Below are positions 379 to 23,640 of a DNA stretch of 32,786 nucleotides, piece after piece (positions within the stretch are counted from its first letter, which is position 1; each line of letters starts with the position of its first letter). This DNA comes from an uncultured Candidatus Saccharibacteria bacterium (GTDB lineage: Bacteria > Patescibacteriota > Minisyncoccia > UBA6257 > UBA9933). Both the position numbers and the translations under genes were made by a program. Where the stretch lies: assembly GCA_964398445.1 (NCBI GenBank), contig CAYNMK010000002.1, positions 1 through 32,786 of the forward strand, written 5' to 3'. Under the pieces are notes generated by a model that was given only the letters and a program-made list of their open reading frames with translations, was not told the DNA's origin and did no database searches.

Positions 379-543
379 AACAGGTTGAGACAAATTTTTA
401 ATTAAGGGCGTATGGTGGATGCCTTGATATCAAATGGCGATGAAGGACGTGGCGTGGCTGCGATAAGCCTCGGTGAGGTGCTTAGCAACCTATGACCCGG
501 GGATTTCCGAATGGGGAAACCCTCTGCGGTAAACCCGCAGAAC

Positions 544-605
544 CGTGTCTCGCTTTTGTTCGACACTTATAAATTGGAATAAGTGGTAAATAAAAGTGAG
601 ACACG
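544..605 (+). repeat. 23S hairpin insertion/expansion 1 (helix 9-10 region)
   Basis: cgtgtctc...gagacacg stem. It contains the recurring motif gtgtctcgcttttgttcgacac and is longer than the corresponding E. coli segment. Confidence 0.45.
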
Positions 606-658
606 GAGCGTACCCGCTGAAGTGAAACATCTCAGTAAGCGGAGGAAAAGAAAAAAAT

Positions 659-838
659 CGTTTGCGCCTCACTGCGTTTGGCACAGACTAAAACCAAAGG
701 TAAAAAATAAAAAATTAAAAATAAAAATGTAAAAACGGAAAAATGTTTTTAGGTTTTAGGAATTTTTGATTTGTATTTTTTATTTTTAATATTTAATTTT
801 TGGTTTGAGTGAGTGTTGAGCATAGTGAGGCGCAAGCG
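659..838 (+). repeat. 23S hairpin insertion 2 (~E. coli nt 215 region)
   Basis: It interrupts ...gaggaaaagaaa...|...attccccaagtagcggcgagcgaa. gcgcctcact (664-673) pairs with agtgaggcgc (824-833). The ~80-nt AT-rich arms pair with many G-U positions. Confidence 0.7.
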
Positions 839-877
839 AATATTCCCCAAGTAGCGGCGAGCGAAAAGGGAGGAGCC

Positions 878-1047
878 CAAACCTAACCATACCTCACTGC
901 GTTCGGTATGGAATTATTTAATTTTTAATTTTTAATTTTTATTAAATTTTTAATGTTTTAATTTTCAAACATTAAGTCATTCATTAGAAATTAGAAATTG
1001 AAAATTAGAAATTCTACCCGAGCATAGCGAGGTGTGGTTGGGGGTTG
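878..1047 (+). repeat. 23S hairpin insertion 3 (~E. coli nt 270 region)
   Basis: Basal pairing is aacctaaccatacctc / gaggtgtggttgggggtt. The 5' arm has (aattttt)3 and the 3' arm has (attagaa)n, paired through U-G wobbles. Confidence 0.7.
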
Positions 1048-1392
1048 TAAGAATTTCACGCTACTTTACTAATCGCAAAGTTCCTGTTTATGGGATTTTG
1101 TGATTTGTGAAGCAAGAAAAGGTTACAAAATTATTTGTTAGCTGAATTTATTGGAAAGTAAAACCAAAGAAGGTGATAGTCCTGTAAGCGAAAACGAATG
1201 ATCCTTTTAGTGAAGTATCTTGAGTAACTCGATGACAGAATACTTCGAGTGAATCATCCGGCACTATCCGGAAAGGCTAAATACATTTGATAATCGATAG
1301 CGAATAGTACCGTGAGGGAAAGGTGAAAAGTAGGCCGGCAAGGCCGTTGAAATAGAACCTGAAACCATATGCTTACAAGGAGGCGGAGCTTT

Positions 1393-1545
1393 GTGTCTCA
1401 CTTTTGTTCGACACCGAATTTTTAATTTTTAATTTTGAATTTCTAATGAATAATTAAATGATTTAATGTTTAAAGCATTAAGTTGTTAGAAATTAGAAAT
1501 TAAAGAATTAGAAATTGGAACGAGTGGCGAGCGAAAGCGAGACAC
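1393..1545 (+). repeat. 23S hairpin insertion 4 (helix 25 region, a classical IVS site)
   Basis: It sits between ...caaggaggcggagc and agtgacgctgtgcc. The base is gtgtctcacttttgttcgacac ... gcgagacac, with an AT-rich periodic distal hairpin. Confidence 0.7.
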
Positions 1546-1654
1546 GGAGTGACGCTGTGCCTATTGAAGAATGAGCCAACGAGTTTATGTATATCGCTAG
1601 TTTAAATCTTATGAGATGAAAGCACAGGGAAACCGAGTGTTAAAAGCGCGTATA

Positions 1655-1814
1655 CCGTTGCTGTCGCAACGGAAATCCTAAATCCAAAATCCTAAACCCT
1701 AAACAAATCCAAAATTTTAAATCCAAAATTCAAAACAATTTTTTGGATTTAATGTTTAAATTTTATTTAGGATTTAGAGTTTAGAATTTAGAGTTTCCGC
1801 TGCGGTAGCAGCGG
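1655..1814 (+). repeat. 23S hairpin insertion 5 (domain II, ~nt 640 region)
   Basis: Mini-hairpin ccgttgctgtcgcaacgg (1655-1672), then a long hairpin of cctaaat/ccaaaat 7-mers paired with ggattta/gagttta units, then mini-hairpin ccgctgcggtagcagcgg (1797-1814). Confidence 0.7.
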
Positions 1815-2331
1815 TCGGCGGTATGTGTAAGACCCGAAGCCAAGCGAGCTTGCCCTGGCCAGGATGAAGTTTGATGAAAATCGAATGGAGGTCCGCACCA
1901 GTAGGTCGTTCAAAACCTTTGGATGAGCTGGGGCAAGAAGTGAAAAGCTAATCGAGCTTGGTAATAGCTGGTTCTCTCCGAAATAGCTTTAGGGCTAGCG
2001 TCCGGGGAAAATTTATGTGGGGTAGAGCTACTAGTTAAGAAGTAAGGGTGAAAGCCTGATCTTTTTAGTCAAACTCCGAATACGCATAAAATTAGCCTGG
2101 GCAGTTAGACCATGGGGGCTAAGCTCCATAGGTCAAAAGGGAAACAGCCCAAATCGTCGTCTAAGGTCCCTAAATATTTGCTAAGTGTTAATAAGGCAGT
2201 GATTTGCCACAGACAGATAGAAGGTTGGCTTAGAGGCAGCCATCCTTTAAAGAGTGCGTAACAGCTCACTATTCGATGGCGAATTGCGCCAAAAATTTAC
2301 GGGACTAAGCAAATTACCGAAGACACGAATA

Positions 2332-2473
2332 CCAGTGCTTCGCACTGGAATTTTCAATGATCAATTTTTAATTTTCATTGAATTTTTAATCTTTTAATTT
2401 TCAAACATTAATTTATTAGAAATTCATTAGAAATTAGAAATTGAAAATTAGAAATTCCAATGCGCAGCATTGG
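2332..2473 (+). repeat. 23S hairpin insertion 6 (helix 45 region, a classical IVS site)
   Basis: ccagtgcttcgcactgg (2332-2348), then an AT-rich heptad hairpin, then ccaatgcgcagcattgg (2457-2473). It sits between ...ccgaagacacgaata and tgtggtaggagagc. Confidence 0.75.
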
Positions 2474-3016
2474 TGTGGTAGGAGAGCATTTCAATCGCGT
2501 TGAAGCTTTAGCCGTGAGGCAGAGTGGAGCGTTTGGAAGAGAAAATGTTGGTATGAGTAACCGCAAAGCCGATGAGAATTCGGCTCCCCGAAAATCCAAG
2601 GTTTCCTCCGCAACGAAAATCGACGGAGGGTTAGGCGATCCTAAGGCGATGACGAAAGTCGGAGTCGATGGACAGCTGGTTAATATTCCAGCCCGCTGAA
2701 CATAGTTCGATGGAGAGACGGAGAAAAAAAGATCAAGCATCTTAATGGTTTGGTGTTATTGGTTATTAGAATTGTTGTTTTGGCAAATCCGGGCAACTAC
2801 CTTTAATGGTAAAATTCGCAAATTGATAAAACTTCGATTCGTCGGAGAATTTGATTGAAGAGTCTTCTGAAAAAAACTTCTAAGATTTCCTATGTTTGGC
2901 TTCGTACCGTAAACCGACACAGGTGGATGAGGCGAGGAGCCTCAGGGGAACGAGTGAGTCCTCGTTAAGGAACTCGGCAAAAAAGCGGCCGTAACTTCGG
3001 GATAAGGCCTGCCTGC

Positions 3017-3197
3017 CCAGTGTTTCGCACTGGAGTTTTCAATGAATAATTGTTAATTTTTATTAAATTTTTAATGTTTTAATTTTTGAACATTAATTCA
3101 TTAGAAATTGCTTGCCCCGTAGTGAATGCGAAGCATTCTATTGCTGGGGATTAGAAATTAATAATTAGAAATTAGAAATTCCACTGCGGAGCAGTGG
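3017..3197 (+). repeat. 23S hairpin insertion 7 (helix 63 region) with a nested branch
   Basis: ccagtgtttcgcactgg (3017-3033), then a long hairpin, then ccactgcggagcagtgg (3181-3197). An extra branch at 3110-3150 contains cccc...gggg and the mini-hairpin gaatgcgaagcattc. Confidence 0.75.
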
Positions 3198-3319
3198 TGT
3201 GGGCCGCAGCGAAAGTATCCCTGGCGACTGTTTATCAAAAACACAGCTCCCTGCGAACTCGTAAGAGGATGTATAGGGGGTGACGCCTGACCGATGCGAG
3301 AAGGTTAACGGTGGCAGTC

Positions 3320-3450
3320 TTGTGTTTCGCACTTAGTTTATGAGTTTCGCTTCATTACAGTTTAATGAGTTATTGAGTTTTAATTGATTAAACTACAGTG
3401 AGCGGAACGAATGTAACTCATTAATTCATAAACTGGGTGCGGAGCGCGAG
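3320..3450 (+). repeat. 23S hairpin insertion 8 (domain IV, ~nt 1860 region)
   Basis: It is flanked by ggcagtc / gactgcc pairing. gtgtttcgcac on the left and gtgcggagcgc on the right enclose a hairpin of gagtttN 7-mers. Confidence 0.65.
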
Positions 3451-3525
3451 GCCGACTGCCCGAAGCCCTCGTCAATGTCAGCAGTAACTATAACTGTTCT
3501 AAGGTAGCGCATTTCCTTTCCGGGT

Positions 3526-3907
3526 AAGGTGGAACTTGCCCCTTTTCGCCGCGAGGTGAATCGAAGAAGTCAGCTTATAACGGTGAAGCCCTAATTCTTT
3601 AATGATGTATTTTGTGATATTATATAAAGAATGGGTAATACCGTGGGAAGCCTAACTAGTGCTGTCGCACAAGTGACTAACGATAAATGACCTATGACCA
3701 ACGACAAAAAAGTTGTTAGTCGTTAGTTGTGAGTCGTAAGTTGCTCGCGCGGAGCAGTGGTAATGGCCCTGTAACGACTTAGGCGAAAGCCTTAATAATT
3801 CTTTTTTAAGAATTATTATACGCTGACCACTTAACTTAAATTATAAATAATTTAAGTTAAGTTGAAGATATAGTCTGATACTTATCGTGAGATAAGCAAA
3901 CATATAG
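3526..3907 (+). mobile_element. Group I intron 1 in 23S (after U1951, E. coli numbering; no ORF)
   Basis: The exon junction restores ccgggt|aagttccgg. The 5' exon ends in T and the intron ends in G. The internal guide aactt-gccc (3533-3541) pairs with the 3' exon aagtt (P10) and the 5' exon gggt (P1, with a U-G pair). Core motifs present: cttataacggtgaag, taataccgtgggaag, ccctgtaacgactt, aagatatagtct. Confidence 0.85.
3656..3760 (+). repeat. Hairpin element inserted in a peripheral loop of intron 1
   Basis: Mini-hairpin gtgctgtcgcac, then a hairpin of gactaac/gataaat/gacctat/gaccaac 7-mers, then tgctcgcgcggagca...gtgg. It occupies the same intron position as the HEG ORF in intron 3. Confidence 0.6.
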
Positions 3908-4404
3908 AAGTTCCGGAGCGCACGAAAGGCGTAACGACTGGGGAACTGTCTCAACGAGGAGCTCGGTGAAAATGCAATTCCCGTGAAGATGCGGGATACC
4001 TACAGCAAGACGAAAAGACCCCGGGAGCTTTACTGTAGCTTGATATTGATTTTAAAATTTTGATGCGTAGCGTAGTGGGGAGGCTTTGAAACTTTACTTT
4101 CGGGTAAAGTGGAGCCGCCAATGAAACACCCATCGTTAAAATTTTAAAATCTAATCTAAATGGCAAAAACATTTGGAGACAGTGTTTGGTGGGCAGTTTA
4201 TGTGGGGCACATTCCTCCTAAAAAGTAATGGAGGAGTTTATTAAGGTTGGCTTGGCCCGGATGGAAATCGGGCTGGACGTGTAAAGGCAAAAGCCAGCTT
4301 AACGGCAAGGCCGACAAGCCGCGCCGATGCGAAAGCAGAACTTAGTGACCCGACCATTCTTTATAGAAAGGTGGGAGACAACGGATAAAAGCTACCCCGG
4401 GGAT

Positions 4405-4686
4405 AGAACCTGAAATAAGGTTTTGTTGTCCTCCTCATAGTAATGTGAGGTAAAAAATGCGACTTATAACGGTGAAATCAAAATTGGTCTTCCCTGGAAA
4501 CAGGTTTTAGGATTTTGGTAATACCGTGGGAAGTCTAACCACTGCGGAGCAGTGGCAATGACCCTGTAACGACTTAATCTAAGAAGATTGGATGGTAGTT
4601 TTTAAACTATCATAATACGTCGCGCCCATTAAAGTTTTTTTAATGGGAAAAGATATAGTCTAATCATTCGCAAAGCGAATAGATTG
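4405..4686 (+). mobile_element. Group I intron 2 in 23S (after U2449; no ORF)
   Basis: The junction restores ggggat|aacaggctg. The guide gtt-gtcctc (4425-4433) pairs with the 3' exon aac and the 5' exon ggggat, with a U-G pair at the splice site. It has the same core motifs as intron 1 and ends ...agattg. Confidence 0.88.
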
Positions 4687-4821
4687 AACAGGCTGGTTGC
4701 GTCTAAGAGTTCATATCGACGACGCAGTTCGGCACCTCGATGTCGGCTCATCACATCCCGGGGGTGGAGAAGCTCCCAAGGGTTTGGCTGTTCGCCAATT
4801 AAAGTGATACGCGAGCTGGGT

Positions 4822-5648
4822 GAATTAATCCAAAAATGAGCCCAGCAAAAATTGACTCATAACGGTGGAGTCCGAATGCTTAAAGTGTTAAAATTTAAGT
4901 AATGGATAATACCGTGGGAAGATTACAATCTTTATTTTCACCACATCAATTTGATGTGATTATTGGATCATTATTAGGAGATGCACGACTTGAATGTCGT
5001 TCAATTGGATTAAGACATTCAATTACCGCACGATTCAGAGTGCATCATGGAGAAAAACAAAAAGATTATGTTTTTTGGAAATACGAAATTCTTAGAAGTT
5101 TAGTAATAAAAGAGCCTCAGAAAAGTATATGGAATAATCCAAAAAGAAATATTCAAGAAATTTCTTGGTATTTTCATACGAAAAGCTTAAAAGAATTTGG
5201 TGTCATTTATAGATATTTCTATAAAGACAACATTAAGATTCTTCCAAAAAATTTATTTAATCTACTTACTCCTAGAATGATGGCAATATGGTTTATGGAT
5301 GATGGCTCAAATACCAAAGAAAGCTTTACGTTAAATACGCATAGTTTTTCAGAAAAAGAGCAATTACATATAGTTGATTTTCTAAAAAACAATTATAAAA
5401 TTATAGCTACTTTAGTAAAAGATAGAAATAAATTTAAAATCAGAATTAATAAAAGTAGCTATCAGAAATTCGTAAACATTATTAAGCTATTTATTATTCC
5501 TTCTATGATTTATAAGATTGATAATCCCCGTAACGACTTGTCATATAATATGACAGAGTTGCCTTATTAAAGGCAGTTAACACGTCAGCTCCGACTTAAC
5601 ATCGGAGAAGGTATAGTCTAATGCTATTAGTAATAATAGAGAATATTG
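4822..5648 (+). mobile_element. Group I intron 3 in 23S (after U2584/2585, in the peptidyl-transferase loop), carrying a LAGLIDADG gene
   Basis: The junction restores gctgggt|tcagaccgtcgtgagacagg. The guide tga-gcccagc (4837-4846) pairs with the 3' exon tca and the 5' exon gctgggt (7 bp, U-G pair at the splice site). Core motifs present: ctcataacggtggag, taataccgtgggaag, ccccgtaacgactt, aaggtatagtct. Confidence 0.88.
4902..5570 (+). CDS. Double-motif LAGLIDADG homing endonuclease (intron-encoded)
   Basis: 222-aa ORF inside intron 3. It has two LAGLIDADG-type motifs, IIGSLLGDARLE and IWFMDDGS. Confidence 0.85.
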   Translation: MDNTVGRLQSLFSPHQFDVIIGSLLGDARLECRSIGLRHSITARFRVHHGEKQKDYVFWKYEILRSLVIKEPQKSIWNNPKRNIQEISWYFHTKSLKEFGVIYRYFYKDNIKILPKNLFNLLTPRMMAIWFMDDGSNTKESFTLNTHSFSEKEQLHIVDFLKNNYKIIATLVKDRNKFKIRINKSSYQKFVNIIKLFIIPSMIYKIDNPRNDLSYNMTELPY

Positions 5649-5773
5649 TCAGACCGTCGTGAGACAGGTTGGTCTCTATCTGCTGTAGGCGTTGACGCTT
5701 GAGGGAAGTTGACCCTTGTACGAGAGGATCGGGTTGAACGAACCTCTGGTCTACCGGCTTTACCACCAGGTGA

Positions 5774-5804
<31 letters not shown>

Positions 5805-5958
5805 GAGCTGAAAGCATCTAAGCACGAAGCCCCTCCCAAGATTAGGCGTCTTAGATTGGTCGAAGACTACGACCTTGATAGGCTTTAGGTGTAAGCATAG
5901 TAATATGTTTAGCCGAGAAGTACTAATAAATCATATTTTTTTGTTTCTATCTAAATTT

Positions 5959-5983
5959 CAGGGTTCGAAGAGTCGAATAATTG
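5959..5983 (+). promoter_or_regulatory. 3' strand of the long-range pre-23S processing stem
   Basis: Complementary to 227-251 at 23 of 25 positions. It is followed by a trailer hairpin (~5984-6047) with atgac/atgat 7-mer units. Confidence 0.6.
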
Positions 5984-6106
5984 TCGTATTGTGCTTCATT
6001 GTCGTTTGGCGTTTTTTAATCAACGACTAATGATTAATGACTTATGCAATATAGAAATATTATTGTTATTATGTTGTAGGTTATTAATTATTATTGTTAA
6101 TAGCGG

Positions 6107-6221
6107 TTTCTTGGTGATTTAATTTATCGTGCTCTACCCGATTCCATTCCGAACTCGGAAGTAAAAGCGATAAATACCGATGATACTTAGTTTTCTAGGG
6201 AAAGTAGGTTTCGCCAAGATT
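6107..6221 (+). rRNA. rrf: 5S rRNA
   Basis: ttcttggtg...cgccaaga forms the terminal helix. Conserved ccgaactcggaagtaaaa and ggaaagtagg segments are present. It lies ~155 nt downstream of 23S. Confidence 0.85.
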
Positions 6222-6260
6222 CCTCTGTTAATAATTTGGTGTAAAGAGTATAATCATAAA

Positions 6261-7313
6261 ATGACTCGACAAATAATAAAGCAGATTTTTTATGGTACTG
6301 GATTTTTTTTAATATTTTTTTTAATTATTTCCGGTAGTTATTTTATTTGGCTTAAGCCATCTCCTAGTTGTTTTGATGGTCGTCAAAATCAAGGCGAAAT
6401 TGGAATTGATTGCGGTGGTCCTTGTATTGATTGCGAAATAAAAATTTTAAATCCTTTAGAAGTATCTTGGTTAAGACATTTTCCTGTTGACGACAGAGTA
6501 GTTATTGCGGCTGAAATAAGAAATCCTAATTTTAATTACGGAGCTGATAATTTTTCTTACATTTTTACTATTTATAATTATTTTGGAGAAAAAATTTATA
6601 CTTTAAATAAGAATTCTTTTATTTATGCTGGTGAAATAAAATATCTTATAGAGGCAAACATTGATATTAATCCGAAAAATATTAACAAAATTAAACTTTC
6701 TTTTTCCAACATTAATTGGAAATCTAAAGAAGAATTCCCTAGGCCCGAAATTCAAATTCGAGAGATTAGAACTGAGTCAGCCCAACCTATTCGTGTTAGT
6801 GGATTAGTAATCAATAATAATGCCTTTGCATTATCAGATGTAAACGTTGTTAGTTTTTTGTTTAATAAAAATGGTTTTCGGATAGGCGCTTCTATAGCTA
6901 AATTAGGCAGCCTTCCAGCTTTTGAAGAAAAATTTTTCCGAATTGTTTTCCCTGGTCATATTTCTTTAATTGCAGAAGAAATTATAGAAAAGTTGGCTCC
7001 AATTAATTATAAATTTACTCGTAATTTAACTATTGGCTCAAGGGGTGAAGATGTAAAATCTTTGCAGCAGTTTCTTAAAGAGCAAGGATTTTTTAATCGT
7101 GAAATTACAAATTATTTTGGTTTAATAACTAAAAATTCTTTAATTCAATATCAGAAAAAGGCAGGCATATCGCCAGCATCTGGTTATTTTGGCCCCATAA
7201 CTCGTAATCATATTAACTCTTTAATAACGCCAGTTCCTCTGTATTTGCCTAAGTTTAATATTAATGAGGCTGATCCAGGCTTAACTAGAGTTTATGTTGA
7301 TGTTATTCGTTGA
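6261..7313 (+). CDS. Membrane-anchored protein with a C-terminal peptidoglycan-binding domain
   Basis: The ORF-track start at 6180 overlaps the 5S gene, so the start is moved to the ATG at 6261 (MTRQIIK). One N-terminal TM segment, a GIDCGGPCIDCE Cys motif, and a C-terminal GEDVKSLQQFLKEQGFF...GYFGPITRNHI segment typical of PG_binding_1. Confidence 0.6.
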   Translation: MTRQIIKQIFYGTGFFLIFFLIISGSYFIWLKPSPSCFDGRQNQGEIGIDCGGPCIDCEIKILNPLEVSWLRHFPVDDRVVIAAEIRNPNFNYGADNFSYIFTIYNYFGEKIYTLNKNSFIYAGEIKYLIEANIDINPKNINKIKLSFSNINWKSKEEFPRPEIQIREIRTESAQPIRVSGLVINNNAFALSDVNVVSFLFNKNGFRIGASIAKLGSLPAFEEKFFRIVFPGHISLIAEEIIEKLAPINYKFTRNLTIGSRGEDVKSLQQFLKEQGFFNREITNYFGLITKNSLIQYQKKAGISPASGYFGPITRNHINSLITPVPLYLPKFNINEADPGLTRVYVDVIR

Positions 7314-14588: not shown

Positions 14589-15173
14589 TTATTTTTTTGC
14601 TTTAATAATTTCGTCAATTAAGCCATATTCTTTGGCTTCTTTGGCGTTAAGCCAAAAGTCGCGGTCAGTGTCTTTTTCTATTTTAGGTAGTGGTTGATTA
14701 GTGTGCTTGGCTAAGATGTGGTTTAATTGGTCTTTAATTTTAATAATATGACGAGCGGCGATTTCAATTTCTACTGCTTGTCCTTCGCCCGCGCCCATTA
14801 CCTGGTGAAGCAGAACTTCAGAATTTGGCAGCATAAATCTTTTATCTTTTTTGCCCGACGTTAAAAGTATTGCCCCCATTGAACCGGCGATTCCAACGCA
14901 AATTGTTGAAACATCTGGTTTAATGTATTGCATTGTGTCGTAAATTGCCAAGCCAGCTGAAACCGCGCCGCCAGGAGTATTTATATAAAGTATAATGTCT
15001 TTTTTTCGGTCTTCATGTTCTAAAAATAAAAGTTGAGCGATTATTGCATTAGCCATTGAATCGGTAATCGGTCCGCCTAGAAAAATTATTCGTTCTTTGA
15101 GTAATCGGGAATAGATATCATAAGCGCGTTCGCCGTATTGAGATTTTTCTATTACTGTGGGTATTAAATTCAT
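14589..15173 (-). CDS. clpP: ATP-dependent Clp protease proteolytic subunit
   Basis: 194 aa. [28 protein letters not shown] (Ser) and LLHQV (His) motifs. Confidence 0.92.
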
Positions 15174-20276: not shown

Positions 20277-21206
20277 ATGACTAATATTAACTATTTGCTT
20301 AAAACTTATCTTAATTATTTAGAAATTGAAAAAAATCGTTCTCCAAAAACATGTGAAAATTATGAACGGTATCTTAATGCATTTATAAATTTTATTCCTT
20401 CTAGTGGCGAGCAAGACAAAATTAAGACTGAAAAAGATATTACCATTGACAAGGTAAGAGACTTTAGGTTGTATTTAGCTAGAGTTAAAACTCAGAAAGG
20501 CGAAATTCTCAAAAAAACCACTCAGGCATATTATATGATTGCCTTAAGGAATTTTTTAAAATATTTAATTAAACAAGATTATGGCGTTTTATCGCCAGAT
20601 AAAATTGAATTACCAAAAACTTCAACGCGGCAGATTGAAATTATTGAATATAAAGATTTAGAAAGATTACTTGAAGCGCCTAAAGCAAAAGATTTGCGTT
20701 GTTTGCGCGATAGAGCCATTTTGGAAATTTTTTTCTCTACTGGCTTACGAATTTCTGAACTTTGCAAGCTTAATCGTTATTTTGATTTAAATCGTGGCGA
20801 GATTACTGTTCGAGGAAAAGGCGATAAATTGCGAATAGTTTTTCTTTCTGAACGCGCCAAAAAAGCGATTAAAAATTATTTAGACAAACGGACAGACACC
20901 GAAGAAGCGCTTTTCATAAGCTTAACAAAAGCTAAGTCGCCGAAAATAATTGGCAGGATTATTCCCAGGACGATTCAAAGGTTGGTAAGTTTTTATGCCA
21001 GAAAAGCGGGTATTTCAGATAAAATTACTCCGCATCAACTTCGTCATCAATTTGCTACAGATCTTTTAATAGGTGGCGCTGATTTGCGTTCGGTTCAGGA
21101 ACTTTTAGGGCATGCTAATGTTTCTACTACTCAAATTTATACCCATCTTACCAACAAAGAACTTCATGAAATTCATAAAACCTTTCATGCTAGGCGTCGG
21201 AAATAA
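20277..21206 (+). CDS. Tyrosine site-specific recombinase, XerC/XerD family
   Basis: 309 aa. N-terminal SAM-like domain. Catalytic-region motifs RISELCKL, HQLRHQFAT and LLGHANVSTTQIYTH. Confidence 0.85.
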   Translation: MTNINYLLKTYLNYLEIEKNRSPKTCENYERYLNAFINFIPSSGEQDKIKTEKDITIDKVRDFRLYLARVKTQKGEILKKTTQAYYMIALRNFLKYLIKQDYGVLSPDKIELPKTSTRQIEIIEYKDLERLLEAPKAKDLRCLRDRAILEIFFSTGLRISELCKLNRYFDLNRGEITVRGKGDKLRIVFLSERAKKAIKNYLDKRTDTEEALFISLTKAKSPKIIGRIIPRTIQRLVSFYARKAGISDKITPHQLRHQFATDLLIGGADLRSVQELLGHANVSTTQIYTHLTNKELHEIHKTFHARRRK

Positions 21207-21302
21207 AAAATCATTTTAATGTATTGTTAATTTAATGCATTGTTAATTGTAAGAATCCCGAGCGTTGTTTATAGTCTGTCTTTGTTCTTTTTCCGCCCGA
21301 AC

Positions 21303-21405
21303 AATTCCTCTCTTGCCTTCGTTACTAACTTCGTTCGTTTAATGCCATTTTCTTCCAGTCTTAAAGGGACGCTACGCTTCTAAAAAAATAGCTACCTTTT
21401 CGGGG
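21303..21405. ncRNA. Conserved noncoding element, copy B (unknown function)
   Basis: Paralog of 10344-10447. It lies between the recombinase gene and the tRNA locus. Confidence 0.4.
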
Positions 21406-21501
21406 TGACGAATGTGCGCGCGGGGGACTTGTCACTAAAATTTCATTTTGACGAGCTTCGTCTAGCTTTAGAAAGTATTGTGATGTTATCTTAAATTTCT
21501 G

Positions 21502-21685
21502 TGCTCCCGAGAGGATTTGAATCTCTACCTCTTGCAAGATTCCGCACCTTTTTTTTGAAATGTGGGCAGGGAGGGACTTGAACCCTCAAGCCTTGCGGCA
21601 CTAGCTTCTAAGGCTAGCGTGTTTGCCATTTCACCACCTGCCCATAAAAGGTGAGGGACGCGTCTGCCAGTTCCGCCACGGGAGC
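21502..21685 (-). other. Split Leu-type tRNA-like gene whose anticodon region is replaced by a stem carrying a whole tRNA
   Basis: Minus-strand reading. The 5' part is GCTCCCG-TG-GCGGAACTGGCAGACGC (acceptor strand plus a Leu-type D arm). The 3' part is AGAGATTCAAATCCTCT-CGGGAGC-A (T arm, with an A-C at positions 53:61, plus the complementary acceptor strand). Between them, CACCTTTT and AAAAGGTG form an 8-bp stem enclosing tRNA-Leu(UAG). I could not fold a canonical anticodon arm. Confidence 0.45.
21563..21643 (-). tRNA. tRNA-Leu (anticodon UAG), class II
   Basis: GGGCAGG/CCTGCCC acceptor, GTG/CAC D stem, CTAGC-CTTAGAA-GCTAG anticodon arm, 13-nt variable arm, GAGGG-TTCAAGT-CCCTC T arm, discriminator A, no encoded CCA. 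Confidence 0.85.
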
Positions 21686-21849
21686 ATTGGGTTGACTTAT
21701 TTATAATTTTATGTTTATATTATATTGCCTTCAATAGGTACCCTTGGTATTTTATGAAGCGAGTTTCAAGAGTAAATCTTGGAATCTGAAAGTACATTAA
21801 CAATACTATATTGAATTGAAAATAAAAACAATTCAAAAAGGAGGAAGCA

Positions 21850-23214
21850 ATGTTCATTTTCAAAGAAGAAACCGAGGAAGCAAAAGAACTAAAAGCCGGA
21901 AAACTGATATCCAACTATGCGGCAATTCTTTCTCTGGGGGTGATAATTTTTATCACATTCGCAGGGGGGGTATTTATTGATTGGATTGGATTCTTATTGA
22001 TTGGAAGCGCTGTAGCTATTATAACATTAGCGCTAAATTCGCCCGTTATGGTTCCGACAGTTTATTTTGGAATTATAACAAGAATGGAAAAGAGAAGAGT
22101 GGTAGATGATAAAGTCGCAATATTGGATGAGGGTATTGGACTTATATATCCTTTGATAGACGATTTGTTACCTAAAAATCTCAAGTGCAGGAAATTGGTA
22201 ACCAAAGAAATTGACGCAACTGCCTTGAGCAAAGATAAGTTGTCTATCACCTTCAAGGGCTCTGTGCAATATAACCCATCAAAATTGAATGTCTTCATTG
22301 AAATGGACAAGAAGACAATTGAAGAAGGCATGGTGGATGCTATTATGTCGGAAATTGGCAAAGTTTGCGGACTTAAAAACGCTGACACCTTTGTTGAAAA
22401 ACGAGCTGAAATAGAACTTATGATCCGTTCTATACTTCAGCTAGAAAAACCTCCTCATTATTATTTTGATGAGGAAGTTGATCTTGAGAAGATTAAAAAA
22501 GAAGCTATCTCAACAAGAATATCGCTTGAGAAGTTCACTTCTACTTCAGAAAAAGAAATTATCAAAAAAGAAGTAGACAGGTTGTCGCCTGAGGCTGGTA
22601 TAGTGATGGGCGTAATCTTAAAGAAGGATATACTTGAGGAGCTTATTAAAGCTAAGTATGGGTCTGAAAAAATTAAGGAACTGGCTAGGAAGTTGTCACC
22701 AGAAAACTGGCAACTTCTGGTAAATGAAGACGAAGACGAAGACGATAAAGACAAAGATAAAGACAAAGACAAAGACAAAGACAAAGACAAAGACGACAGA
22801 AGAAAAGGAATAGATATTGTTCAGTTCTATAAGGACAATATCAGCCGCATATCCTTAATATTTGATATCTTTGATGATATCAAAATAAGTTCAAGGGTAG
22901 AGAGGCTTTATGGGATCAGAGTAGCGACCTTTCGCTTGGCCAAGCTTTCTTTCTCTGACGAAGCTCAAGCAGCATTTGAAAGGGTAAGGGCTGCGGAAGC
23001 TATAGCAGAGGCAGCTAAAAAGATTTTTACCACAAAAAGAGAGATCTTAAGGGGATTCATAGAAGATAAAGTTCCAATGGCTCAGGCTGTCAATCTAACT
23101 GAGTCAACAATGGCCGGGAAAGAAAAGGTCAGCCGCGATGTAATCTCAGTGGAGGGGACTAAGGAATCAGACCTGATCGCGATTGCCAAAACATTTGCTG
23201 GCAAGGACGACTAA
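21850..23214 (+). CDS. Membrane-anchored SPFH/band-7 family protein with a large charged insertion and a (DK)n tract
   Basis: 454 aa with two N-terminal TM segments. The SPFH-like N part runs VPTVYFGIITRMEKR...ITFKGSVQY...IEEGMVDAIMSEIGKV. The SPFH C part is YGIRVATFRLAKLSFSDEAQAAFERVRAAEA. The two parts are separated by ~150 aa of charged sequence. A strong SD (ggagg) lies 7 nt upstream. Confidence 0.55.
   Translation: MFIFKEETEEAKELKAGKLISNYAAILSLGVIIFITFAGGVFIDWIGFLLIGSAVAIITLALNSPVMVPTVYFGIITRMEKRRVVDDKVAILDEGIGLIYPLIDDLLPKNLKCRKLVTKEIDATALSKDKLSITFKGSVQYNPSKLNVFIEMDKKTIEEGMVDAIMSEIGKVCGLKNADTFVEKRAEIELMIRSILQLEKPPHYYFDEEVDLEKIKKEAISTRISLEKFTSTSEKEIIKKEVDRLSPEAGIVMGVILKKDILEELIKAKYGSEKIKELARKLSPENWQLLVNEDEDEDDKDKDKDKDKDKDKDKDDRRKGIDIVQFYKDNISRISLIFDIFDDIKISSRVERLYGIRVATFRLAKLSFSDEAQAAFERVRAAEAIAEAAKKIFTTKREILRGFIEDKVPMAQAVNLTESTMAGKEKVSRDVISVEGTKESDLIAIAKTFAGKDD
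22727..22797 (+). repeat. Coding microsatellite (GAAGAC)3 + (GAYAAA)~8 encoding EDEDEDDKDKDKDKDKDKDKDKDD
   Basis: Direct reading of 22727-22797. Confidence 0.9.
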
Positions 23215-23235
23215 AATAAAAAGGAGGGAAAGCAG

Positions 23236-23640
23236 ATGAAGATAGGAAGCAGAGTAATTATCGTAGCAATAATAATACTGCTACTACTAGCGGGGACATA
23301 TTACAGGTTCTTGTCGCTAATCCCAGAGACAAGAAACAAAGGAATAGCAGCGGTCGAGATTGCTATTCCTCTCCAGGAGACAAAATTTCATCAAAGAGGA
23401 GAGGAGATAATAGTGCTTGTTCCACCCGACAGGCACATTTCAGTCCCCTTGCCATTCAACCACATTTTTGATTTTTACTTTGAAGATGATTTCGAAGTAA
23501 AATTGATGAATGGCAGATTATTCAAATTTACGAAGGAATTGTATCCCTATGTGGGAACAATTCCGGGGAACAGAATAAAACTCCGGTCACTCACAGGAGA
23601 GGAAGTGAAGATAACAATATTTCTCTCTCCTGATGAGTAG
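23236..23640 (+). CDS. Small single-pass membrane protein, unknown function (partner of the SPFH gene)
   Basis: 134 aa. N-terminal TM segment followed by a beta-rich soluble part. Strong SD (ggaggg). 21 nt after the SPFH stop. Confidence 0.5.
   Translation: MKIGSRVIIVAIIILLLLAGTYYRFLSLIPETRNKGIAAVEIAIPLQETKFHQRGEEIIVLVPPDRHISVPLPFNHIFDFYFEDDFEVKLMNGRLFKFTKELYPYVGTIPGNRIKLRSLTGEEVKITIFLSPDE

Follow-up and report, generated by a model that had tools for sequence, protein, structure and literature searches.

Results

A tRNA-Leu gene split around a complete tRNA-Leu(UAG) gene

On the minus strand of the 32,786-nt (32.8-kb) stretch of contig CAYNMK010000002.1 that we analyzed (the window), positions 21502–21685 carry a class II tRNA-Leu gene in two halves and, between them, a complete tRNA-Leu(UAG) gene. 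Read directly from the minus strand, the 5′ half of the outer gene (21659–21685) consists of the acceptor strand GCTCCCG, U8 and G9, the D arm GCGGAACTGGCAGACGC (21676–21660) and G26, and its 3′ half (21502–21539) of the variable arm TCTTGCAAGAGGT, a T arm, the acceptor strand CGGGAGC and A73. The two acceptor strands (21685–21679 and 21509–21503) pair at all seven positions, with the discriminator A at 21502, and the T arm reads AGAGA-TTCAAAT-CCTCT, with a mispair at A53:C61. In all of these respects (acceptor stem, discriminator, D arm, TTCAAAT loop and A53:C61), a first-pass annotation made from the letters alone had described the outer element correctly. What the outer gene lacks is its anticodon stem-loop, positions 27–43 having been exchanged for 119 nt.

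Both halves, together with their flanks, align to the halves of a single, uninterrupted tRNA-Leu(UAG) gene at orthologous loci, where it occupies a slot next to an Xer-type recombinase gene. We refer to the slot allele that resembles that of the related locus L026 as type A, and to the slot allele with the acceptor strand GGGCAGG as type B. The outer 5′ half has 1 difference in 27 positions from the intact type A slot tRNAs of L026 and L051, the nearest relatives; the outer 3′ half shares 88–97% identity with the corresponding part of the type A slot tRNA; and the acceptor stem, D arm and variable arm are all of the Leu type and match those of type A slot tRNAs. The L026 gene reads GCTCCCG TG GCGGAATTGGCAGACGC G CATGG-TTTAGGA-CCATG TCTCGCAAGAGGT AGAGG-TTCAAGT-CCTCT CGGGAGC A, and the outer element is equivalent to an L026-like type A gene minus positions 27–43, with 3–4 differences from L026 in 65 nt. 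We aligned 28 distinct intact slot tRNAs, from which a clade-specific covariance model was also built: position 53 is a G in 28 of 28, and an A in the outer gene, whose T stem has a predicted pairing probability of ~0.01 and is not expected to form. A second change, C to T, turns a pair of the variable stem into G-U.

No tool called a tRNA from the outer halves, including ARAGORN with its intron and pseudogene options, which returned only the inner tRNA and no intron-containing canonical fold, and a search of 21150–21900 against Rfam at E values up to 10 yielded nothing except the inner tRNA. The clade covariance model does detect two parts of the outer gene, each by itself, namely the variable and T arms (21510–21539; 14.8 bits, E = 1.3e-3) and the D arm (21660–21676; 11.1 bits, E = 0.013), and ARAGORN calls the outer element a tRNA-Leu(tag) once the type A anticodon arm is restored. 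With the insert deleted or its arms joined, ARAGORN calls no tRNA from the outer element, in agreement with the earlier statement that no canonical anticodon arm could be folded there. A series of 575 deletion constructs, run with the pseudogene option at relaxed thresholds, drew 174 tRNA calls that contradict one another (Phe, Pro, Arg, Leu and others), and is therefore uninformative. Because its anticodon arm is gone and its T arm damaged, the outer gene would be unable to decode, and its best reading is that of a young split pseudogene. The near-identity to type A fits a recent event, and would fit selection on the outer structure equally well.

If, instead, the outer element were a split tRNA, or one with an intron, and splicing joined its halves into a working molecule, both the perfect outer acceptor stem and the long helix that holds the halves together, as in archaeal split tRNAs, would find an explanation. 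Unfortunately for this view, the joined halves give no anticodon loop, with or without the arms, and ARAGORN calls no tRNA from them; the type A anticodon-stem strands CATGG and CCATG are gone, whereas a true intron would leave both; there is no match to the group I intron model (Intron_gpI, RF00028) in 21150–21900 at E values up to 10; and inspection revealed no 3-4-3 bulge-helix-bulge, the helix having 15 positions with three mismatches and no 3-nt bulges. We find a spliced outer tRNA barely conceivable, and regard it as close to excluded.

Two kinds of interrupted tRNA gene bear on this point. Group I introns occur in the anticodon loops of bacterial and plastid tRNA-Leu(UAA), and the window resembles such cases in that a bacterial tRNA-Leu is interrupted in its anticodon region; however, a group I intron lies inside the loop, keeps both stem strands, is at least 200 nt long and has a ribozyme core, whereas the window insert has 119 nt, replaces the whole arm and gives no group I signal. 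Split, tri-split and permuted tRNA genes are found in Archaea (Nanoarchaeum) and in red algae (PMC4090602, PMC3978253). As in the split genes, the halves in the window are held by an extra complementary helix at the position of the anticodon stem; but whereas the archaeal and red-algal genes rebuild their anticodon arm through a bulge-helix-bulge and a splicing endonuclease, the outer halves rebuild no anticodon and show no such motif, and their host is bacterial. The halves stand in normal order, unlike those of a permuted tRNA gene, and no tmRNA was reported by ARAGORN.

The inner gene and its paired arms

The inner gene (21563–21643, minus strand) is a class II tRNA-Leu(UAG) of 81 nt without an encoded CCA, found alike by ARAGORN (at 21562–21643), by Rfam (RF00005, 64.2 bits against a gathering score of 29) and by the clade-specific covariance model (94.3 bits, positions 1–82); the first-pass annotation had given the same gene the same limits. 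It has a 7-bp acceptor stem, U8, G18G19, U33, a 7-nt anticodon loop, a long variable arm, G53-C61, a T-loop of the form TTCRANT and A73, and its anticodon, UAG, is that of the resident type A gene and the one that the slot always supplies. Among slot tRNAs it is 93% identical to that of L067 and 90% identical to that of L074, and the latter likeness runs ~13 nt into the 3′ trailer (to 21550), across the spacer at 21555–21562 and into the A-run that opens the 3′ arm. The acceptor strand GGGCAGG is common to the inner tRNA, L131 and L137. We infer that the inner gene is a functional tRNA-Leu(UAG), and its relationships point to an import from the type B subclade.

The insert as a whole runs from 21658 to 21540, encodes no protein, and replaces the 17-nt type A anticodon stem-loop (27–43) with a 15-nt arm, the 81-nt tRNA, an 8-nt spacer and a second 15-nt arm. 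The 5′ arm, TCCCTCACCTTTTAT (21644–21658, minus strand), starts at outer tRNA position 27; the unpaired spacer, CATTTCAA (21555–21562, minus strand), lies between the 3′ end of the inner tRNA and the 3′ arm, AAAAAAGGTGCGGAA (21540–21554, minus strand), which ends at outer tRNA position 43. The inner tRNA had been thought to sit on an 8-bp stem; its strands, CACCTTTT and AAAAGGTG, are complementary, but they are only the core of a longer stem, the two arms forming a symmetric, imperfect 15-nt inverted repeat (12/15) directly between G26 and position 44. With the register fixed by where homology to type A stops, the chance of a 12/15 match is 4e-5 (binomial) or 1e-4 (empirical). The length of the arms, the exactness of the exchange and the anticodon common to both tRNAs had escaped the first-pass annotation.

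No target-site duplication accompanies the insert, and 17 nt were lost; no att-type direct repeat flanks 21540–21658, and the host tRNA is not restored. With up to 3 mismatches allowed, no second full copy of the 3′ arm exists in the window; the 5′ arm has one extra match with 2 mismatches (15026–15040), within the number expected by chance, and in ~745 kb of related loci neither arm has a second copy apart from a partial match in locus L104. When a phage collection was searched with the insert, there was only generic similarity to tRNA-Leu, and no match covering at least 80% of it.

An assembly artefact, in which a type A strain and a type B strain were merged into a chimeric contig, would also give a nested structure, and some circumstances favor it: the contig is of the metagenome type and has no close relatives, both alleles occur in related populations, and contigs of another assembly break inside this very tRNA (L036/L031). 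But a merger of A with B yields a switch of alleles, not a complete B gene between both halves of A, and it would not make a linker of 38 nt (15 + 23) that is foreign to both alleles and forms a 12/15 inverted repeat. Since, in addition, the junctions share no assembler-length k-mer with either allele, we consider an artefact very improbable.

The 184-nt RNA is predicted to fold into the outer acceptor stem, the 8-bp helix and the inner cloverleaf, with pairing probabilities of 0.77–0.99 for the 8-bp core of the arms and ~1.0 for both acceptor stems; its folding z-score is −2.3. On another view the composite RNA is itself functional, the outer shell being kept either as a scaffold that aids processing or stability of the inner tRNA, or as a nicked, anticodon-less but chargeable tRNA-like molecule with a non-ribosomal role. 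Apart from the perfect outer acceptor stem and its predicted pairing, this view can call upon the intact D and variable arms, on the new arm, which extends the helix from 27/43 and preserves the cloverleaf geometry, on the better conservation of the outer halves than of the flanking DNA, and on the bacterial leucyl-tRNA synthetase, which is not known to read the anticodon. Against it stand the change of G53 to A where 28 of 28 intact genes keep G, with an outer T stem predicted to be unformed; the plain tRNA in all ~45 relatives with the slot; a single occurrence, without evidence from covariation; and a z-score that is unremarkable given the real tRNA inside. A scaffold with another role had been one of the three options put forward by the first-pass annotation, and it found no positive support here, the loss of the invariant G53 weighing against it; we hold a functional shell to be decidedly unlikely.

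One close parallel to such a shell is artificial. Ponchon and Dardel reportedly engineered a ‘tRNA scaffold’ for RNA expression, and the window is like it in that an anticodon stem-loop is replaced by an extended stem carrying a cargo RNA. In the engineered scaffold, however, the T arm is intact, whereas the outer T arm of the window has A53:C61 and any use as a shell is putative.

The tRNA slot in related genomes

To place the nested locus among its relatives, one genome per prokaryotic species was scanned with the outer 5′ half, and 80 further loci were obtained through the recombinase. The scan returned 42 loci, in all of which the tRNA-Leu is uninterrupted; most of the loci fetched through the recombinase have one tRNA-Leu(UAG) directly after the Xer gene (L129, L131 and L137 likewise), and a single uninterrupted tRNA-Leu(UAG) stands right after Xer in about 45 of ~90 related loci. 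In the closest relatives the order is NusA, PNPase, NYN, S15, Xer, tRNA-Leu(UAG) on the opposite strand, Band7/SPFH, a small open reading frame (ORF) and pilin-like genes. L026 follows the gene order of the window to either side (NusA, PNPase, NYN, S15, Xer, tRNA), and is 79% identical to it over the upstream intergenic region and 5′ half and 89% over the 3′ half and its flank.

The comparison with orthologous loci, which the first-pass annotation had proposed, established through the intact outer-type tRNA-Leu(UAG) of L026 that both halves belong to one gene. Of the three options among which that annotation had made no choice, it also lends support to the first, a tRNA-Leu gene destroyed by the insertion of another: intact type A genes occupy the same locus, uninterrupted, in L026, L051 and L031/L069, and the inner type, type B, is the slot gene of L074, L067 and L131 (its GGGCAGG acceptor strand recurs in L137). 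Neighbour-joining of the recombinase places the window with L026, in a clade that includes L051 (both type A) and also holds L045, with a type B-like allele, and L043/L044, with a mixed allele; the slot genes with GGGCAGG fall in another Wolfebacteria-like subclade. Because of this placement, type A is likely to be the ancestral state of the window lineage, and the inner gene the imported one.

Across 377 locus pairs, the identity of the Xer proteins does not predict that of the slot tRNAs (r = 0.03); in L045 and L051, for example, the Xer proteins are 93% identical and the tRNAs 62%. Turnover of alleles thus appears, from these alignments, to be the rule at this slot. The slot tRNA of L043/L044 (4965–5046) resembles a module-by-module mosaic: its D arm is identical to that of the B-like L056 at 16 of 17 positions and its variable arm to that of L074 at 12 of 13, its anticodon arm and T arm each match the type A gene of L026 at 17/17, and its acceptor strand, GCCGGCG, is unique. 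In one assembly, the contigs L036 (7448–7500) and L031 (3–87) share the opening 53 nt of one type A tRNA-Leu(UAG), at which point one of the two contigs stops; the assembly graph therefore branched inside the tRNA, which may reflect a polymorphism of alleles or of an insertion in that population.

The clade covariance model found no nested case among 70 other loci, and an orphan tRNA piece in one of them, L104. There, an orphan type B variable arm, T arm and 3′ acceptor strand (1621–1677, minus strand) lie 21 nt after an intact slot tRNA-Leu(UAG) of yet another type, and the orphan is identical to the inner gene of the window at 36 of 36 nt. The linker between the two, ATAAAAGGCGCGGGA, matches the 3′ arm of the window at 13 of 15 positions and ends one nucleotide before the orphan variable arm. 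When the A-run that is common after these tRNAs is set aside, the G-rich 10 nt match at 7/10 (P about 0.007), and we treat the likeness of linker and arm as suggestive only. The GCGCGGG of L104, which the covariance alignment offered as an orphan 5′ acceptor strand (6/7 pairs), was judged compatible with chance.

Taken with the paired arms, the L104 linker speaks to another explanation: that the insert is a small mobile tRNA cassette, a hairpin-bounded unit of arm, tRNA and arm that targets the anticodon arm of tRNA-Leu(UAG), and whose insertion would be harmless to the host because it carries its own tRNA-Leu(UAG). Such a cassette would account for 15-nt terminal inverted repeats (12/15) that abut positions 26 and 44 exactly, for the anticodon shared by cargo and target, for fast turnover of alleles at the slot, and for a linker in L104 that resembles the 3′ arm at the equivalent junction even though both resident and incoming tRNAs differ. 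It sits poorly with the absence of a target-site duplication and the deletion of 17 nt, with arms that recur, L104 excepted, neither in the window nor across ~745 kb of related loci, with cargo tRNAs that differ in type between the window and L104, and with the absence of a linked transposase or dedicated recombinase, the adjacent Xer being of the conserved housekeeping type. Moreover, neither the 70 loci searched with the covariance model nor the viral contigs searched for a pattern of type-A-like outer and similar inner D arms contained a nested case, and an 8-bp flanking inverted repeat taken alone is not rare, being present in 8 of 183 tRNA contexts in the fetched loci. Miniature inverted-repeat transposable elements likewise have terminal inverted repeats, but unlike them the insert has neither a target-site duplication nor multiple copies. 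We consider a mobile cassette unlikely, and it competes with replacement in place only over the route by which the DNA arrived, on which we grant it a small share of probability, and not over which gene works.

tRNA genes are hot spots of recombination and integration, which leaves displaced tRNA fragments and att-type duplications behind, and Williams (2002) reportedly treated them as integration sites. The window shares with such hot spots a tRNA gene at the border of conserved and hypervariable blocks, and its relatives have orphan pieces beside an intact gene, as in the 3′ piece of L104 and a repeat in L111. Unlike att-type integration, however, the window has no direct repeat and no element-borne half that completes the host gene; a whole second tRNA stands in place of the anticodon arm, leaving the host gene split and without function. 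The suggestion that this insert used a classical tRNA integration site is accordingly not upheld, there being no att-type repeat, no integrase inside the insert and a conserved Xer gene next to it. In L111 (3474–3654, minus strand), comparison with L102 reveals a 165-nt insertion directly after the slot tRNA that contains no ORF and is flanked by a 17-nt direct repeat of the tRNA 3′ end, GACTCCCACCGAGGACA, the classical att-type signature.

Searches of viral and metagenomic sequences complete the survey. A gapped pattern built around an outer D arm like that of type A and a similar inner one identified no nested case in viral contigs, its three false positives all lying inside single tRNAs; a viral scan with the type B D arm returned only unrelated phage tRNA arrays; and a metagenome scan with a degenerate promoter pattern gave 0 matches. 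In the viral contig L133 (8969–9095), a complete tRNA-Leu(UAA) is preceded, 22 nt upstream, by an orphan D-arm fragment of the Leu type, TGGCGGAATTGGTAGACGC, which the gapped pattern had picked out; no matching 3′ half is visible downstream.

Genes and sites around the slot

Upstream of the outer 5′ half, a consensus scan located a promoter-like site, TTGAAG-17 nt-TAAAAT (21706–21734, minus strand), in a block that is conserved in L026, L043, L045 and L051, and found no further promoter-like site between it and the inner tRNA. To judge from these sequences, it is the only candidate promoter for the whole nested unit. This agrees with one part of a second option of the first-pass annotation, a composite precursor from which the inner tRNA is released, which follows from the first option; as to the other part, nothing indicates that the released halves act. 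Polycistronic tRNA precursors are processed by RNase P and 3′ nucleases, and here too the inner tRNA must be excised from a longer, tRNA-like transcript; but whereas the tRNAs of ordinary operons lie side by side, the window has one tRNA enclosed by another that is incomplete.

The Xer-type tyrosine recombinase gene (20277–21206, plus strand), which lies outside the insert, encodes Pfam Phage_integrase and SAM-like domains, scores 224.6 bits with the NCBIfam XerA-type model (cut-off 220) and is near XerC and XerD. It marks the tRNA slot and is found in every relative, beside uninterrupted tRNAs; being kept in all relatives, it is therefore not the integrase of the inserted element. Its 5320 homologues are mostly from Wolfebacteria/Patescibacteria, those with names coming from Candidatus Wolfebacteria, Paceibacterota or ‘Patescibacteria group’, and the best are 83–84% identical. 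By these matches, the source of the window is a groundwater-type bacterium of the Candidate Phyla Radiation (CPR)/Patescibacteria without a close relative in the databases.

On the other side of the slot, the Band7/SPFH protein and the next small ORF (window 21850–23640) keep their position but are extremely divergent in sequence: in this region the window and L043 are 31% identical, and L045 and L129 have no BLASTP match. These hypervariable genes sit in genomes whose Xer proteins are 80–93% identical (window, L043, L045 and L129), and among the same four the intergenic DNA up to the Band7/SPFH start codon is still 77–84% identical. The slot therefore lies at the border of a conserved and a hypervariable block, and the first-pass annotation was right in perceiving an edge there; but the region beyond it, taken for a foreign-looking cassette, is conserved in position and is not an insertion. 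The best database homologue of the SPFH protein is 51% identical, an exact look-up of the protein gave no record, and SPFH homologues were rejected as locus anchors, their identity being at most 51%.

Between the Xer gene and the tRNA, many relatives have palindromes centered on CGATCG (e.g., AACTTATATACA-CGATCG-TGTATATAAGTT), with the dif-like architecture of arm, 6 nt, arm: in L026 at 425–460 and 1105–1140, in L045 at about 4075–4110, and in L046 at about 1275–1305 and 2025–2048; in L074, L069, L056, L130 and L132 they lie downstream of the slot tRNA. The two sites of L026 bracket a 199-aa Cas2/PaaX_M-like ORF, which is also present in L045, L046, L130 and L132; the arrangement looks like a small element exploiting Xer. 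The count of CGATCG in the window is 0, against 3.7 expected. Integration of the Xer/dif type was considered for the insert and rejected, its arms being unlike these palindromes and CGATCG being absent from the window.

Two further sequences were considered and set aside. In L128 (1966–1985 and 2087–2104) and L105 (1930–1948 and 2119–2136), the 17–18-nt sequence CCTTAAAAGGTGCGGGGT occurs in inverted pairs, ~100–170 nt apart, upstream of divergent genes; it has 11 nt, AAAAGGTGCGG, in common with the 3′ arm of the window, but the genes downstream are unrelated, and we dismissed the likeness as coincidence. Downstream of the slot tRNA there is a conserved block with the motif CAAGTCCC (window 21411–21480; L026 about 300–365). 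The idea of a much older tRNA relic within it (21411–21475), prompted by three short collinear repeats of the inner tRNA spaced 148–149 nt apart and by a weak alignment, was dropped after the clade model gave it 1.9 bits.

The remainder of the window is AT-rich bacterial DNA, and its only tRNA, according to ARAGORN and Rfam, is the tRNA-Leu(UAG) at 21563–21643. Its protein genes include those for a LAGLIDADG endonuclease, RNase J, TrpRS, ClpP, NusA, PNPase and GyrA, and several of its proteins are type IV secretion pilin-like. Rfam also identifies a 5S rRNA gene and a 23S rRNA gene stretched by insertions, the 23S match having 4507 nt against a model of 2925 positions (region 392–6219) and containing a genuine group I intron (3516–3897). 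The LAGLIDADG endonuclease ORF (4902–5570) begins 4 nt past the end of the 23S rRNA match, and the 5S gene, 1.2 kb further on, overlaps the beginning of the ORF at 6180–7313.

Discussion

The anatomy of the nested locus, the homology of each of its parts and the patchy distribution of alleles among its relatives were observed directly. To account for all three, we think it probable, with real room for doubt, that the locus shows one tRNA gene in the course of replacing another in place, at an intermediate stage. The window lineage would first have carried a type A tRNA-Leu(UAG) in the slot between the Xer-type and Band7/SPFH genes, until a 119-nt piece of DNA with a complete type B tRNA-Leu(UAG) and two complementary 15-nt arms replaced exactly the 17-nt anticodon stem-loop. 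From then on, the inner gene would have taken over as the working tRNA-Leu(UAG), read from the old promoter within a composite precursor; RNase P would free its 5′ end, endo- or exonucleases together with the CCA-adding enzyme would finish its 3′ end, and the outer halves would be by-products of a young split pseudogene. Over time these halves may be lost, leaving a cleanly replaced gene, a state of which L045 is a possible case and to which L104, as a half-resolved one, would be intermediate.

Several features of the locus weigh against this scenario. The swap is exact, arm for arm (27–43), with a symmetric 12/15 inverted repeat at the ends of the insert; random illegitimate recombination predicts neither an exact swap nor paired arms, and for this reason the mobile cassette and the functional shell were both kept as rivals. 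The outer halves are nearly unchanged while the flanking intergenic DNA is 79–89% identical, a pattern that selection also fits. There is, furthermore, a single example, in a lineage whose nearest database relative has an Xer identity of 83–84%, and the tRNA inventory covers one 32.8-kb window with one tRNA.

Full-text searches of the open-access literature found no report of one tRNA gene nested in another. For annotation, the locus is a warning that tRNA finders silently miss the outer gene. In a bolder version, which we consider unlikely, the unit of arm, tRNA and arm would be an undescribed minimal cassette, selfish or adaptive, that homes into the anticodon arm with a replacement tRNA of the same specificity and so drives the turnover of the slot, perhaps under pressure from tRNA-targeting toxins or phages; or else the shell would be a natural tRNA scaffold or a chargeable, anticodon-less RNA. 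Should the paired arms recur, they would mark a novel type of mobile unit that carries a tRNA, or else the natural counterpart of the engineered tRNA scaffold.

tRNA genes are generally regarded as highly stable. At this slot, between genomes whose recombinases are 93% identical, the tRNA-Leu(UAG) differs by up to 38%, and the window apparently shows a physical intermediate of such a swap. If this is true, the streamlined genomes of the CPR would have a route by which a whole tRNA gene can be replaced, the new gene arriving inside the old one, using the old promoter, and the shell then being lost.

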